A stretch of DNA of 64,000 nucleotides, from positions 608,001 to 672,000 of the forward strand of contig CAVYGB010000002.1 of assembly GCA_963767925.1 (NCBI GenBank), read 5' to 3'. Numbering within the stretch: position 1 is the stretch's first letter; every line of letters begins with the position of its first letter. The notes under the pieces were generated by a model. It had not been told where the DNA came from. It saw nothing but the letters and a program-made list of their open reading frames with translations, and did no database searches. The translations under genes and the position numbers were made by a program. Shown one piece after another: positions 786 to 52,301 of this stretch. This DNA is from an uncultured delta proteobacterium (lineage in GTDB: Bacteria > Myxococcota_A > Polyangia > Fen-1088).

Positions 786-1976
786 GTGTCGGGTGGTGCA
801 GCCGGGGGCGGGAGCTGTCGATGGGGAAGGGAGGGGGAGCGACTGCTGCGCGGCCAGGAAGTGGGTGGGAGAACACGCGACGCTGGACCGCGCCGGTCCG
901 ATGGTGGGCGTGCCGTCGCCGCGGCCGCTGCGCGGGCGAGTCGCCGCCGGGCGATCGGCGGGATCGTGCTGCTGGTGCTGGCGGGCGGGTGCCTGAACCT
1001 GGCGCCGCCGTCGGTCACCCGGTGTGGCGAGGACCACCACATCTGCCGGGAGGACGCGGGCGCCGAAGACGGACGCAAGGATGCGTTCACCGGGGAGAGC
1101 GGGACCGACGCGGTGGCGCCGGACGCTGACTCTCCCGACTCGGACGGCCTGGACCACGCGGTCGACCTGGACCCAGCGGGCCCCGACGCGGATCCAGACA
1201 CAACGAGTGGCCCGTCGGACGTCGCCCCGGTCCCGAGCTCCGACGGACCGACCGACCTGGCCCCCGACACCGCCGTGGATCGCGCGCCCGACACCGCCAT
1301 CGACACCGCCGTGGACCGCGCGCCCGACACCGCCATCGACACCGCCCCGGACCGCGCCCCCGACACCGGTCCGGTCGCAACCTGCCCCGGCGACTCGTCG
1401 CTGCTGCTCTGCCTGCGGTTCGAGGGCGCGCTGGTCGACGAGTCGGCACCCGCCGCCACCGTCACGGGGAGCAACCTCGGCTACCAGTCCGGAACGGACA
1501 GCCAGGCGATCCGCCTCGCCAGCTCGAGCCTGCTGCGGGCGGCGGCGGGGTGGGGATCGTTCGCCAGCGCCTTCACGCTGGAGGTGTGGATCCGCCCCGA
1601 TCGCCTGCCCAGCAGCGGCGATCGCATGGGACTCTTCGACGCCGAGGGTCGCTTCGGCCTGTTCCTGCTGCCCGGCGGGGGCGTGAGCTGTTCCTCCCCG
1701 GGTGGTGAAGCGATCGCGGCGGGCGTTGTGTCGGCCGGGCGCTGGAGCGCCGTGGCCTGCACGGCGAGCGGGAGCACCCTCACCCTCTGGATCGACGGCC
1801 AGGCGGAGGACCAGGCGTACTTCGACGGCCTCTCCAGCGGATCGCCCGCCGCCCTCGCCATCGGCGGCAACCTCCCCTCGGGCGATCCCTTCGAGGGCAT
1901 GATCGACAACGTCCGCGTCTGGAGCGTCGCGCGCAACGCCCAGCAGATCGCCGCCCACCAGCCCGCCTCGCCGTAG
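786..1976 (+). CDS. LamG/concanavalin A-like jellyroll domain lipoprotein (start uncertain)
   Basis: Lipobox LAGGC, Asp/Pro-rich DTAVDRAP repeat linker, C-terminal FTLEVWIRP...LTLWIDG...FEGMIDNVRVWSVAR typical of LamG_3. Confidence 0.8.
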   Translation: MSGGAAGGGSCRWGREGERLLRGQEVGGRTRDAGPRRSDGGRAVAAAAARASRRRAIGGIVLLVLAGGCLNLAPPSVTRCGEDHHICREDAGAEDGRKDAFTGESGTDAVAPDADSPDSDGLDHAVDLDPAGPDADPDTTSGPSDVAPVPSSDGPTDLAPDTAVDRAPDTAIDTAVDRAPDTAIDTAPDRAPDTGPVATCPGDSSLLLCLRFEGALVDESAPAATVTGSNLGYQSGTDSQAIRLASSSLLRAAAGWGSFASAFTLEVWIRPDRLPSSGDRMGLFDAEGRFGLFLLPGGGVSCSSPGGEAIAAGVVSAGRWSAVACTASGSTLTLWIDGQAEDQAYFDGLSSGSPAALAIGGNLPSGDPFEGMIDNVRVWSVARNAQQIAAHQPASP

Positions 1977-2115
1977 CGCGCGCGCCGGGCTCATCGCCGA
2001 TCGCAGCGGCAGTTTCAACTCGATCGCCCCACAACGGCGCCGGCCGGCTCCGCATCTCGCGCGCGCGGCTCGAGGCGAAGATGAAAGGCGGGTACGTGTT
2101 AAACAAGCGGGCGGA

Positions 2116-2911
2116 ATGACCCTCTCACGCGGCCTGCCCGCGGCAGTGCTCGCCGCGCTCCTGTGTCTGGGCGCCTGCCGGCGCGAAAGCGCCGCGCCGG
2201 GCCTGCCGCCGCTGCTGCCCCCCGCGAACGCCGCAGCCCCTGCGCCGACCAACACCGCTGCCCCCGCTGCGCCGACTAGCGCTGTCGCCACCGCCGCGCC
2301 GGCCAACGCCGCTGCCCATGCGCCCGCCAGCGCCGCCCCCCCCCGCCGCGCCGGGCGGTTCCGGCGGGGCGACTCCGACGGCGTCCTGGACGCCCGAGCG
2401 GGTGCGTGCCTTCGTGCTCGAGGTCCACCTGTCGATCGAGAAGGTGGTCGACGACCTCACGAAGAAGCGCGACCGCAGCAAGATCATCGGCGAGTGTTTC
2501 GACGGCGAGCCGGCCGGGGCGCTGGCGAAGACGGGCGAGGTCTTGCCCCTGCTGGAGAAGAAGATCACCGGCACCGCCCTCCCCTGTTACCTGGCCAGCT
2601 ACTTCGGCTGCACGGTGGGGGCCTGGATCGGACGCGCCGGCATGGCCAAGATCGGCCCCGGCTTCGTGCCCTTCACCCGCTCGCGCGTGACCATCGTCGA
2701 ACAGACGCCCGAGCGCGTGGTCGCCGACGTCATCGAGGCCGACATCAATGTCGTCATCCACGGCGAGATCGACCGCGGCCAGATCAGCGAGAAGACCGAG
2801 GCCACCCTGAAGGAGAAGTCCCGCTACACCCTCACCCGCGGCGCCGCGGGCGTCTGGCGCATCTCCGACCGCCAGGTCTCCTTCGACGAATGGGAGTGCC
2901 GCCCCCGCTGA
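2116..2911 (+). CDS. Hypothetical lipoprotein, split by a frameshift in the C9 run at 2336-2344
   Basis: Signal/lipobox MTLSRGLPAAVLAALLCLGAC in the 2116 frame; globular, codon-biased domain in the 2318..2911 frame; the junction lies at a homopolymer. Confidence 0.65.
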
Positions 2912-2981
2912 GGCAAGGCCACGTTCCGTCGACCGCCCCGCCGTCGGCGGCCGGCACGGAGACGCACACGGATCCGTCTGA

Positions 2982-3115
2982 CAGTCGTGCACATCTCACG
3001 TGCTCGCGCTCGTATCGTGCACGTGCACGGAAGACGTGGACGGGATCCCAGTCGTGCACGTCTCACGTGCTCGGAAGACGTCCACGGGATCCGCCAGTCG
3101 TGCACGTCACACGCG
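2982..3115. repeat. Degenerate tandem repeat rich in GTGCAC/CACGTG palindromes
   Basis: 3-4 copies of cagtcgtgcacgtctcacgtgctcg(gaagacgt..acgggatcc). Confidence 0.7.
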
Positions 3116-49269: not shown

Positions 49270-50898
49270 TCAGGTCGCCGTCTGACCGGCGGTCGTCTCC
49301 CCCTTGCCCCCCTTGGCGAACAGCACCGGGCCGCCGGGCGGTGGCTCGGTCCAGCGGCCGCGGCCCCAGGAGAGGGCGGCGGGCCAGTCGCCGGGCGTGG
49401 GCGGAGGCTGGGCGAGCTGGGCGCTGATGGCGGCGGACGTGGCGGGGAGGAAGGGGGCGAGGGCCAGGCCGGTGATCCGGACCGCCTCGATGGCGTGGTA
49501 CAGGACCGCGGCGAGGCGGGCGCCCGCGGCCTCGGCAGCGGGGGAGTCGGCGGCGGCGGCGCGGGCCAGGGTCCAGGGGGCCGTCTGCTCGAGGTAGCGG
49601 TTGGCGCCGGCGACGCACTCGAAGACCGCGGCCAGCGCCTCGTCGGCGGCGTGGCCGGCGAGCGCGCCCTCGAGGCGGCCGGGCAGCGCTTGCAGATGGG
49701 CGCGCAGGGCGTGGTCGGGGGCCTCGTCCGTCCCGGCGCGCGGGGGGTGCCGGGACCAGCTCCGCTGCACGAGGGTGATCGTCCGGCGCACCAGGTTGCC
49801 GAGCTGATCGGCCAGCTCGGCGTCGCGCGCGCCGACCAGCCGGGCCTCGCTGAAGTCGGTGTCCTCGAAGGGGCGGATGTGGCGCAGCAGGTAGTGGCGC
49901 ACGGCCTCGGTGCCGTGGCGGGCGACCAGCGCCTCGGGATCGACGGCGTTGCCCAGCGACTTTCCGATCTTCCGTCCGTCGACGGTGAGGTAGCCGTGCA
50001 CCAGCAGATCGCTGGGCAGCGGCAGGCCCGCCGACAGCAGGATGGCCGGCCAGTGGACGGCGTGAAAGCGGAGGATGCCCTTGCCCAGGACGTGCAGGCG
50101 GCCCCCAGCGCCGGCCCAGAACCGCCGGTAGGCCGGGGCGTCGCCGGTCCAGCCGAGCGTGTTCACGTAGCTCGAGAGCGCATCGAACCAGACGTAGACC
50201 ACCTGCCCGGGATCGCCGGGGACCGGGATGCCCCAGCCGCGCGCCCGCCCGCGCGCCCGCGACACGCTGATGTCCTCGAGCCCGCCCGCGAGGAACCCCA
50301 GCACCTCGTTGCGCCGCGAGCGGGGGGCGATCTGCAGGTGGCCCGCCTCGATCAGGCGCAGGAGGGGATCCCGGTAGCGCGACAGGCGGAAGAACCAGTT
50401 CTCCTCCTCGACCACCTCGGGGGCGGTGCCGTGTTCGGGGCAGCGGCCGTCGGTGAGGTCGGCGGCGTCGAAGAACCCTTCGCAGCCGACACAATACAGC
50501 CCGCGGTAGGGACGCCGGTACAGGTCGCCCGCGCGCAAGCAGGCGCGCCACAGCGCCTCGACCCCCGCGCGGTGGCGGGGGTCGGCGCCGGTGTGAATGA
50601 AGTCGTCGTACGACAGGTCGAGGGCCCGGCCGAGCGCCAGGAACCGCCCCGCGTTCTCCGCCACCAGCGCCTGGGGCGACACCTGCGCCCGCTCGGCCGC
50701 CTGCACGTTCTTCAGGCTGTTGTCGTCGGTGCCGCTCTGCAGGTGCACGGGCCGCCCACGCAGGCGCTGGTAGCGCGCGAGCGCATCGGCCAGCACCGCC
50801 TCGTAGGCGAAGCCGACGTGGGGGGCGGCGTTCACGTAGGGGATGGCGGTGCTGATGTAGAAGGGCTGGCAGAGAGACGGGGCAGCGTTCGCGTTCAT
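49270..50898 (-). CDS. metG: Methionine--tRNA ligase, short divergent type
   Basis: FYISTAIPYVNAAPHVG, YCVGCE..CPEH knuckle, ENWFFRLS, DISVSR..WGIPVP, YVWFDAL, RFHAVHWP, KIGKSLGN, LGNLVRRT, NRYLEQTAPW. Confidence 0.92.
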   Translation of the reverse strand: MNANAAPSLCQPFYISTAIPYVNAAPHVGFAYEAVLADALARYQRLRGRPVHLQSGTDDNSLKNVQAAERAQVSPQALVAENAGRFLALGRALDLSYDDFIHTGADPRHRAGVEALWRACLRAGDLYRRPYRGLYCVGCEGFFDAADLTDGRCPEHGTAPEVVEEENWFFRLSRYRDPLLRLIEAGHLQIAPRSRRNEVLGFLAGGLEDISVSRARGRARGWGIPVPGDPGQVVYVWFDALSSYVNTLGWTGDAPAYRRFWAGAGGRLHVLGKGILRFHAVHWPAILLSAGLPLPSDLLVHGYLTVDGRKIGKSLGNAVDPEALVARHGTEAVRHYLLRHIRPFEDTDFSEARLVGARDAELADQLGNLVRRTITLVQRSWSRHPPRAGTDEAPDHALRAHLQALPGRLEGALAGHAADEALAAVFECVAGANRYLEQTAPWTLARAAAADSPAAEAAGARLAAVLYHAIEAVRITGLALAPFLPATSAAISAQLAQPPPTPGDWPAALSWGRGRWTEPPPGGPVLFAKGGKGETTAGQTAT

Positions 50899-50899
50899 G

Positions 50900-50993
50900 G
50901 TGGTCCTCCTCGGGGAAGGCCCGGGCACAGCCGAGGACCACGGCGGCACGACCAGACGCGCCCCGGGTCCCCGACGGCGACCCGGGCGTCTGG
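50900..50993 (-). promoter_or_regulatory. SD-sequestering hairpin (50900-50941) and upstream GC hairpin (50952-50993) in the metG leader
   Basis: mRNA GUGGUCCU...AGGACCAC pairs over the GAGGAGG SD; CCAGACGC/CCCGGGUC stems. Confidence 0.75.
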
Positions 50994-51007
50994 CTGGCTC
51001 GTTGCGC

Positions 51008-51085
51008 TCAGCTCATCGGCCGCACGGGTGCACCGCGCATGGTCATGCGCATGGACATCCGGCGGCGAGAGCAGTGAACGGTCAC
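51008..51085 (-). CDS. Met-rich leader peptide (MTVHCSRRRMSMRMTMRGAPVRPMS)
   Basis: Five ATG codons, four within 7 codons, ~110 nt upstream of metG; extended -10 TGCTATCTT ~10 nt before the GTG. Confidence 0.75.
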   Translation of the reverse strand: MTVHCSRRRMSMRMTMRGAPVRPMS

Positions 51086-51287
51086 GATCGGCTCGAAGAT
51101 AGCAGAAGCAGCGGCGGAGAAGCGAGGGCGCCAGATCCGGCGCGGGCCGTAGGGCGACGGAAGCGGTGGGTGGCCGTCCGCCCGACGGCCTTGTATTGTC
51201 GCCTCCCATCACATGCCCATACGATTGTTTCCCCGCGAGATCTCCCCGTCGACCCGTTCGGGGCGCCCCTGATGACCGAGGCCGCTC

Positions 51288-52301
51288 TTGGATAGCCACT
51301 TCCTGCTCGTGTGCGCGGTGGTGCTGGCCGCGCTGGTGTTCGACTTCATCAACGGCTTTCACGACGCCGCCAACTCCATCGCCACCGTCGTGTCGACCCG
51401 GGTGCTCAGCCCGCGGCAGGCGGTGGCCTGGGCGGCGTTCTTCAACTTCGTGGCCTTCGCCGTCTTCGACCTGCACGTCGCCAGCACCATCGGCAAGGGC
51501 ATCGTCGCCCCCGACGTGGTCGACATGGCGGTCATCATCGGCGCCCTCGGCGGGGCCATCGCCTGGAACCTGCTCACCTGGTGGGGGGGCCTGCCCTCCA
51601 GCTCCTCGCACGCCCTGGTGGGGGGGCTGATCGGGGCGGGGATCTGCAAGGCCGGGCTGGGCGCCCTCGGCTGGTCGAAGATCGGCATCACCGCCCTGTT
51701 CATCGTCGTCTCGCCGGTGCTGGGCCTCCTCGGGTCGAGCCTGCTGATGATCGGCCTGAGCTGGCTGCTGCGCCGGCAGTCCCACGGCCGGGTGGACCTG
51801 TGGTTCCGCCGCTTGCAGCTCGTCTCCGCCGCCGCCTTCAGCCTCAACCACGGCGGCAACGACGCCCAGAAGACCATGGGCATCATCGTGGTGCTGCTCT
51901 TCTCCCAGGGCTACATGGGCCAGACCTTCCCCACCAGCGAGCAGATCCCCTTCTGGATCGTGCTCTCCTGCCACGCCGCCATGGGCCTCGGCACCCTCAG
52001 CGGCGGCTGGCGCATCGTCAAGACCATGGGCATGCGCCTGACCAAGCTGCGCCCCTTCGGCGGCTTCTGCGCCGAGACCGGCGGCTCCGCCGCCATCTTC
52101 ATCGCGACCTTGCTGGGCGTCCCCGTCTCCACCACCCACACCATCACCGGCGCCATCGTCGGCGTCGGCGCCGTGACCCGCCCCAGCTCCGTCCGCTGGG
52201 CCATCGCCCGCCGCATCCTCTGGGCCTGGATCTTCACCATCCCCGCCTCCGCCGCCATCGCCGCCATCACCTACCTCCTGGCCCGCGCCGCCGGCATCTG
52301 A
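51288..52301 (+). CDS. pit: Inorganic phosphate transporter, PiT family
   Basis: NGFHDAANSIAT, GLPSSSSHALVGG, HGGNDAQKTMG, PVSTTH. Confidence 0.95.
   Translation: MDSHFLLVCAVVLAALVFDFINGFHDAANSIATVVSTRVLSPRQAVAWAAFFNFVAFAVFDLHVASTIGKGIVAPDVVDMAVIIGALGGAIAWNLLTWWGGLPSSSSHALVGGLIGAGICKAGLGALGWSKIGITALFIVVSPVLGLLGSSLLMIGLSWLLRRQSHGRVDLWFRRLQLVSAAAFSLNHGGNDAQKTMGIIVVLLFSQGYMGQTFPTSEQIPFWIVLSCHAAMGLGTLSGGWRIVKTMGMRLTKLRPFGGFCAETGGSAAIFIATLLGVPVSTTHTITGAIVGVGAVTRPSSVRWAIARRILWAWIFTIPASAAIAAITYLLARAAGI

Follow-up and report, generated by a model that had tools for sequence, protein, structure and literature searches.

A candidate methionine-codon leader peptide upstream of an accessory methionyl-tRNA synthetase gene in an uncultured delta proteobacterium

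How would a bacterium with two genes for methionyl-transfer RNA (tRNA) synthetase (MetRS) sense that the second one is needed? The question is raised by a stretch of 64,000 nucleotides (nt) from an uncultured delta proteobacterium (Polyangia; Fen-1088), taken from assembly GCA_963767925.1, contig CAVYGB010000002.1, positions 608,001 to 672,000, and referred to here as the window. In this window, a metG gene is preceded by a short upstream open reading frame (uORF) rich in methionine (Met) codons and by a series of hairpins, one of which covers the Shine-Dalgarno (SD) region of metG. We consider it highly likely that the uORF represents a genuine Met-sensing leader peptide and, with somewhat less assurance, probable that it belongs to a ribosome-mediated, Met-tRNA-sensing attenuator which controls an accessory metG. 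Translation of the uORF, stalling of the ribosome at its Met codons, and the identity of the regulated output are inferred from sequence. An initial annotation of the same DNA had described an extended -10 element, a Met-rich uORF, a GC hairpin that lacks a U-tract, and a hairpin that buries the SD, and all four are in place.

The Met-rich reading frame upstream of metG

The controlled gene and the elements at the head of its leader are the following.

49270..50898, minus strand: metG, encoding a 542-aa short-form methionyl-tRNA synthetase, with its ATG start at 50898
51096..51104, minus strand: extended -10-like element read from the sequence (TGCTATCTT), 10 nt upstream of the uORF GTG
51008..51085, minus strand: putative leader-peptide uORF, with a GTG at 51085, 25 codons (VTVHCSRRRMSMRMTMRGAPVRPMS), and a UGA stop at 51010-51008
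51038..51058, minus strand: proposed regulatory Met codons 10, 12, 14, and 16 (AUG UCC AUG CGC AUG ACC AUG)

The uORF has Met codons at positions 10, 12, 14, 16, and 24, and its end lies 109 nt from the metG AUG. The occurrence of such codons was evaluated across homologous loci, of which 80 were drawn from species-representative genomes and 80 from metagenome contigs, together with loci from the window's own class. The codon test set consisted of 153 loci with at least 250 nt of upstream DNA, which left 131 after near-duplicate removal. For each of the 61 sense codons, a locus was counted if its 300 nt upstream contained two in-frame copies of that codon, either adjacent or separated by one codon. 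An in-frame ATG pair was present upstream of metG in 74 of the 131 loci on the sense strand and in 19 on the antisense strand, as compared to 13.6 ± 3.2 loci in dinucleotide shuffles (z 18.8). ATG ranked first of the 61 codons, and the runner-up, GAT (z 9.6), is a shifted reading of ATGATG. The frame of the Met pair closes before metG in 71/131 loci. An earlier test on the 71 usable loci of the genome collection, requiring at least three in-frame ATG codons within seven codons, returned 16/71 loci on the sense strand, 6/71 on the antisense strand, and 15/1420 shuffled sequences.

Met-cluster uORFs that end ∼60 to 110 nt before metG were found in many lineages, namely Actinomycetota (...MMALRSGPSGVL), Alphaproteobacteria (...MMMP...), Gammaproteobacteria, Caldilineaceae, Terriglobales, Dormibacteraeota, Latescibacterota, and Myxococcota. 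Most of the Patescibacteria and archaeal loci in the homologue set have no Met-cluster uORF. Within the window's class, an MxMxM uORF is present at 17 of 18 orthologous loci (a set that omits one locus without upstream DNA and one from a genome flagged unpublished), with the Met residues at about codons 7 to 13 and a common tail of ...RGA(S/P)xRA. The uORF of G001, the only congener in the comparison of the genome that holds the window (G000), reads MSMRMTLRR... at the equivalent place. As a negative control, 28 housekeeping-type metG loci from the same family or class gave an ATG pair in 1/28 on the sense strand and in 1/28 on the antisense strand. Because the Met-rich uORF is enriched upstream of homologues, kept in the class, and scarce before housekeeping-type metG, it is, at the level of sequence, more than a product of chance. 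These three comparisons, along with the hairpin covariation and masking results given below, back the proposal of the initial annotation that a Met-codon leader peptide senses Met-tRNA.

The opposite view would be that the uORF is a functionless ORF that arose by chance in GC-rich DNA. Spurious ORFs are abundant in high-GC DNA, and a genome-wide scan of G000 did recover 23 non-coding triple-Met clusters in 9.3 Mb. Only the metG cluster among these 23 adjoins a gene start in a leader-like position, the others being unconvincing, and the strong conservation and enrichment across homologues also stand against chance, which makes this view scarcely credible. At the DNA level, a similarity search with the leader in 40 relatives returned a meaningful match in G001 only. 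Among the public sequencing runs listed as carrying the DNA, none was of RNA, and its share was small in each.

A different alternative accepts that the region is functional but does without a charging sensor. The leader would then be a protein-binding operator (e.g., for MetRS autoregulation via CAU/CAUG tRNA-like hairpins) or a riboswitch, and the reading frame would be incidental. The CAUG palindromes do combine the Met codon with the anticodon triplet of tRNAMet, and the whole leader folds better than its shuffles (z -2.99). This alternative does not account for the in-frame arrangement of the ATG clusters, which lie in reading frames bounded by an SD-led or leaderless start and by a stop, for their constant offset of 7 to 13 codons, or for their recurrence in many phyla in otherwise unrelated sequence. 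Furthermore, the antisense strand carries the same CATG palindromes and is not enriched (19 loci as compared to 74). No Rfam family was matched either: a scan of 50600-51500 at E up to 10 gave a chance microRNA match only (E 0.74), with no T-box or S-adenosylmethionine (SAM) riboswitch, and 20 homologous loci scanned at the gathering score gave 0 matches. We regard an operator or riboswitch of this kind as very unlikely.

It should be noted that the plus strand opposite 51008-51085 also reads Met-rich (MVMRMDIRRREQ). This is a mirror artefact, because CATG is palindromic, and there is no second uORF.

With respect to the start of the uORF, a TGnTAnnnT element lies 6 to 7 nt before an in-frame GTG in G001 and in four leaders of a sister group; the distance in the window is 10 nt. 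TAnnnT occupies the same position before the start in 11 of 19 class leaders, and the other class group of leaders has SD-led AUG starts. This arrangement agrees with the near-leaderless start that had been proposed for the uORF, and a leaderless or near-leaderless uORF in the window is plausible from its sequence.

Hairpins of the leader and the predicted switch

Folding of the leader and complementarity searches provided the following elements, in which the segments are numbered from 5' to 3'.

51019..51066, minus strand: predicted hairpin P1 (segments 1:2), with the Met codons as its 5' arm and the RGAPVR codons as its 3' arm
51018..51040, minus strand: segment 2 (AUGCGCGGUGCACCCGUGCGGCC), a potential partner of segment 1 or segment 3
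50955..50990, minus strand: GC hairpin A (segments 3:4), -24.2 kcal/mol, without a U-tract
50919..50987, minus strand: long alternative hairpin B', in which segment 4 (GGGGACCCGGGGCGC) pairs with the anti-SD segment 5 (GUGCCGCCGUGGUCCUCGG) and segment 3 pairs with GCCCGGG
50900..50941, minus strand: hairpin C (segments 5:6), a 9-bp stem of the anti-SD GUGGUCCUC with GAGGACCAC, -22.9 kcal/mol
50904..50911, minus strand: SD region of metG (GAGGAGGA), read from the sequence

To compare these elements, the window, G001, and seven class orthologues from L199-L206 were aligned (9 sequences). The aligned leaders have two conserved elements, P1 and a strong GC hairpin downstream of it. The 5' arm of P1 is the Met-codon stretch (GAUGCCnAUGCGCGA; AUGUCCAUGCGCAUG in the window) and its 3' arm encodes the ...RGA(S/P)VR tail. 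For both elements together, 85.5% of the alignment cells are paired, as compared to 32 to 44% when the 3' partner is slid, and the P1 helix alone reaches 86.8%. Six pairs are changed on both sides, and 0/500 shuffles reach the covariation score. The alignment places the second helix of the window and of G001 slightly out of register, yet each forms its own hairpin there. Met-rich uORFs and covarying stems upstream of orthologous metG genes, which the initial annotation had put forward as a check, were both found.

The effect of a ribosome on the Met codons was approximated by masking. Each transcript was truncated so as to exclude the 3' arm of the second hairpin, and a mask of 28 nt was placed around the second Met codon. 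In 9/9 sequences, the mask leads to pairing of P1's 3' arm with the 5' arm of the second hairpin; unmasked, P1 forms. In these models, the leader has the 1:2, 2:3, and 3:4 logic of a classical attenuator, with hairpin A of the window as the 3:4 element. The initial annotation treated the GC hairpin as incidental; it is instead central to the model, since it aligns with the terminator-like hairpins of the relatives and supplies the 3:4 helix.

In the mechanism that we favor, a near-leaderless transcript would begin a few bases before the GTG at 51085. The four alternating Met codons (10, 12, 14, and 16) would be the sensor and, as segment 1, would form the 5' arm of P1, with segment 2 as its 3' arm. 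When Met-tRNAMet is plentiful, the ribosome would reach the stop codon and depart, helices 1:2, 3:4, and 5:6 would form, the SD would be paired, and metG would be off. When charged Met-tRNA is scarce, through starvation or failure of MetRS, the ribosome would stall on the Met codons and cover segment 1. Helix 2:3 would then form, hairpin A would be prevented, and the free segment 4 would take the anti-SD segment 5, so that the SD would open, either fully or with no more than a 5-bp CUUCC/GGAGG stem remaining.

The relay from hairpin A to the SD relies on the complementarity of the downstream segments. Segment 4, the 3' arm of hairpin A (GGGGACCCGG...), also matches the anti-SD segment 5 (...GUGGUCCUCGG) in the window and G001, and segment 5 in turn matches the SD-proximal segment 6 (GAGGACCAC). 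The stem of hairpin C occupies the bases between the SD and the metG AUG. Each duplex was compared with 500 shuffles, and the number as good was as follows.

2:3 duplex (-24.7 kcal/mol in the window): 18 in the window, 62 in G001
3:4 duplex: 11 in the window, 0 in G001
4:5 duplex (-29.4 kcal/mol in the window): 6 in the window, 1 in G001
5:6 duplex: 17 in the window, 11 in G001

G001 has a counterpart of hairpin C (GGUCCU/AGGACC, -18.1 kcal/mol), and the 4:5 helix of B' is kept there through a U-G to A-U change and a rebuilt inner helix, despite a 7-nt deletion. The downstream helices of the two genomes were compared by eye from individual folds because a pairwise MAFFT alignment had register shifts.

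Related leaders have structures around the metG start as well. A sister group of 13 sequences has a conserved hairpin that covers the SD together with the four bases that precede the AUG, and an actinobacterial group of 15 sequences has a conserved helix over the metG start codon (CUCGUCGG/CCGAUGAG). The sister-group leaders (L208, L210-L216, L161, L166, L174, L178, and L184) have a leaderless GTG/ATG uORF of the form ..MRMPM..GHPxAR and a conserved hairpin GCGGCUGCC/GGCAGCUGC; a CGAGGG further downstream is complementary to the loop of this hairpin, CCCUCG. The actinobacterial leaders (L050, L092, L051, L094, L104, L075, L056, L131, L134, L149, L153, L155, and others) have a conserved uORF product of 21 aa (...MMALRSGPSGVL), in which codons 10-11 give MM.

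Several results count against the switch as described. At the head of the leader, the spacing of 10 nt between the -10 element and the GTG exceeds the 6 to 7 nt of the relatives, and a consensus promoter scan of the window called no promoter, the -35 being absent. The 2:3 complementarity is modest (z -0.02 to -2.55), with the G001 duplex equaled by 62/500 shuffles. The 4:5:6 part is carried by two sequences only, the window and G001, so that the covariation is minimal (a single U-G to A-U change, together with an inner helix that is built anew), and a metagenome scan for closer relatives, with a best match of 64% identity that was partial, provided no third sequence. B' is the minimum-free-energy structure of the window (-63.5 as compared to -48.6 kcal/mol for A and C together) and is more stable than A and C by 15 kcal/mol in the window and by 10 kcal/mol in G001. 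When ribosome footprints were placed at Met10, 12, 14, 16, or the stop codon, the SD state did not switch in the minimum-free-energy folds, so the claim of the initial annotation that a stalled ribosome opens the SD was not borne out by these folds. Lastly, SD pairing probability, tested crudely in 45 U-tract-less leaders, was no different from shuffled sequences (0.61 as compared to 0.58), and in 18 terminator-type leaders the pairing likewise did not differ from shuffled controls. Because B' is more stable and the folds are unswitched, the OFF state would need to be a co-transcriptional kinetic trap, or the decision would fall at hairpin A, through termination, pausing, or Rho.

The latter option corresponds to an alternative in which the same Met-sensing uORF has a purely transcriptional output. 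Hairpin A would be a terminator with a poor U-tract (helped by NusA/NusG), a pause site, or a Rho entry site, and neither B' nor C would be regulatory. Consistent with this alternative, hairpin A is homologous in position to the terminator-like hairpins of the seven class relatives, whose tails contain 5 to 6 U in the first 10 nt and start with UUU/UUUU in 5/7, and the three helices 1:2, 2:3, and 3:4 are predicted in all nine sequences. In lower-GC homologues from alpha- and gammaproteobacteria and Caldilineaceae, the Met uORF is followed by a canonical U-tract terminator, and the spacer 3' of the uORF stop in the window reads as C-rich and G-poor. In addition, if B' is the ground state, the SD would be largely open in read-through transcripts anyway. 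Set against these points, the tails of the two congeners are U-poor, with 3 U in 10 nt in the window (UGGUCGUGCC) and 4 U in 10 nt in G001, and a consensus terminator scan of the window gave none on the minus strand. A strict scan of two of the relatives' loci (L202 and L203) also called none, despite the UUUU after the stem. Moreover, a purely transcriptional output leaves unexplained the 4:5 and 5:6 complementarity that is conserved in both species. We hold this alternative to be possible rather than probable.

The initial annotation had offered a more direct route, in which the uORF segment GACCAUGCGCGGUGCAC pairs with the anti-SD arm GUGCCGCCGUGGUC (2:5) on stalling, and the SD opens without the participation of hairpin A. 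In the window, this duplex does exist (14 bp, -23.7 kcal/mol, 0/500 shuffles as good). It does not hold up in G001, where the energy is -12.2 kcal/mol, ∼20% of shuffles are as good, and the partner strand is partly deleted, nor is it robust to slightly shifted segment limits, with which it is equaled by 122 and 203 of 500 shuffles. Stalling at Met14 or Met16 would also place the ribosome on the uORF segment itself. Because segments 2 and 4 both match segment 3, complementarity between 2 and 5 is an expected by-product, and direct 2:5 pairing is improbable as the switch.

Taken together, the alignment and masking results point to a leader that would sense Met-tRNA, as the initial annotation had it, and the purely translational control that it coupled to this sensor is only one of the live options. 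In the models, the output in the window could be the SD relay, termination at hairpin A, or both. A further reading, which we advance tentatively and think doubtful, is that this myxobacterial lineage rebuilt a classical three-helix terminator attenuator as a relay of six segments, with a leaderless uORF as its reader and SD sequestration as its last step, and that an accessory MetRS with a back-up or resistance role has spread horizontally with the Met leader as its mark. If true, a single homologous family would have gone from transcriptional to translational attenuation in the course of evolution. The family spans canonical terminators to platforms that sequester the SD or the start codon, which makes the evolution of attenuator output domains directly testable.

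The accessory MetRS gene and its surroundings

The product of the window metG is a true MetRS, with a match to Pfam tRNA-synt_1g (PF09334) and a TIGR00398 score of 360.7 bits (cut-off 336.35). G000 and G001 have two MetRS genes each. The window type is 68% identical between both genomes, and the second MetRS is the family-typical long form, which has a C-terminal tRNA-binding domain, is ∼41% identical to the window MetRS, and in G000 sits on contig C8. At E ≤ 1e-120, window-type metG was detected in 23 of 401 sampled class genomes, with family counts of 1/71 (f1), 8/71 (f11), and 10/67 (f15), and the long-form copy was also found in 5/5 further class genomes that carry the window type. Two metG genes are also present in five carriers outside the phylum (two Rhizobiaceae, and metagenome-assembled genomes (MAGs) of Actinomycetes, Gammaproteobacteria, and Caldilineaceae), where the leader-bearing copy is always the lower scorer on the metG model. 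Altogether, two metG genes were found in 12/12 genomes checked. Since carriers hold two metG genes and the window type is sparse in the class, the target of the leader is, on the sequence evidence, an accessory and patchily distributed MetRS paralogue. Sequence comparison shows the candidate leader to be restricted to the accessory MetRS clade. If the proposed control is true, the accessory MetRS would be induced by any fall in Met-tRNA charging, whether through Met starvation, through a damaged housekeeping enzyme, or through natural inhibitors of MetRS in the soil. Such natural inhibitors may also have provided the selection for a spare MetRS.

In the window MetRS, HVGF replaces the class I HIGH motif and KIGKS replaces KMSKS. 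The window-type enzyme of the congener has HIGF and KIGKS, and the housekeeping copy has HLGT and KISKS. The housekeeping metG of G000 (C8, ∼3095080-3097100; L197, 1080-3103) is readable only as three overlapping frames (1080-1937, from 1462, and 1652-3103), which amounts to two apparent frameshifts. These could be assembly errors in a long-contig MAG or could indicate a real pseudogene; if real, the accessory MetRS of the window would be the sole intact MetRS in that genome.

The leader region is the intergenic stretch between metG on the minus strand and a divergent transporter gene.

51288-52301, plus strand: PHO4-family phosphate transporter (pit), the divergent neighbour of metG

Between the metG leader promoter and the pit start, a terminator-like hairpin is present on the plus strand at 51172-51190 (GGCCGTCCGCCCGACGGCC followed by TTGTATTGTC), which could be either a pit leader element or a bidirectional stop.

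Comparison with known attenuators

The known leader-peptide attenuators cover Trp, His, Phe, Leu, Thr, Ile/Val, and, as a recent addition, Cys, and the classical examples are pheM-pheST and trpL/hisL/leuL/thrL of Escherichia coli. The window leader resembles the pheM/trpL type in that a short uORF contains codons cognate to the regulated synthetase (four Met among its 25 codons, at 10 to 16) and in that mutually exclusive 1:2, 2:3, and 3:4 helices are predicted, with ribosome position as the readout. It differs from that type in that the codons are Met, the 3:4 hairpin has no U-tract, the extra segments 5 and 6 reach the SD, the uORF is apparently near-leaderless, and the target is an accessory paralogue. 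In translational attenuators of the ermC/cat type, a stalled ribosome relieves sequestration of the SD; the window is similar to these in that a hairpin (hairpin C, with its equivalent in G001) is predicted to sequester the SD of the regulated gene.

A spare synthetase gene under charging control has a precedent in thrZ of Bacillus subtilis, which is induced when charging of the cognate tRNA falls and is controlled by a T-box, an element that reads uncharged tRNA directly. The accessory metG would likewise be a spare synthetase gene induced by lower charging; unlike thrZ, no T-box was found at the window or at the 20 homologous loci. A title among the references of PMC4787780 concerns thrZ. 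For the start of the uORF, there is a parallel in design with the mycobacterial polycysteine leaderless uORFs, which are described as attenuators (bioRxiv 10.1101/834739). Both comprise a leaderless or apparently near-leaderless short ORF in a high-GC host, with codons for one amino acid and a role, proposed here for the window, as sensor for the downstream gene. The mycobacterial uORFs differ in having Cys codons and Cys metabolism genes, belong to another phylum, and have no sequence relation to the window.

Among published surveys, the main text of Seliverstov et al. 2005 (PMC1262725), which mentions the pheST attenuator, describes for actinobacterial synthetase operons attenuators of trpS2 and leuS and a T-box for ileS, and none for methionine. 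Narunsky et al. 2024 (PMC11109978) present eight uORF candidates, and metG is absent from the description of these in the main text. In the main texts of the literature searched, neither a Met-codon leader peptide nor a metG attenuator was found, in keeping with the statement of the initial annotation that no characterised example was known. Leader-peptide attenuation is an established kind of control, of which the Met/metG version is undescribed as far as the literature was searched. The candidate Met version stands upstream of one MetRS clade in Myxococcota, Actinomycetota, Alpha- and Gammaproteobacteria, Chloroflexota, Acidobacteriota, Dormibacteraeota, and Latescibacterota.

Alongside pheM-pheST and the polycysteine uORFs, the nearest functional counterparts include the auxiliary synthetase genes of Streptomyces, of which the auxiliary tryptophanyl-tRNA synthetase (TrpRS) gene is described as under ribosome-mediated attenuation. 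The window system is like these in having a second synthetase copy in a high-GC soil bacterium, a leader with cognate codons, and, as proposed here, induction on failed charging. It is unlike them in that the Streptomyces cases concern Trp or Leu and are described as transcriptional attenuators, whereas the window codons are Met. The controlled gene is one of two metG copies in every genome checked, which points to a spare synthetase that may be induced when charging fails, comparable to the auxiliary TrpRS of Streptomyces.

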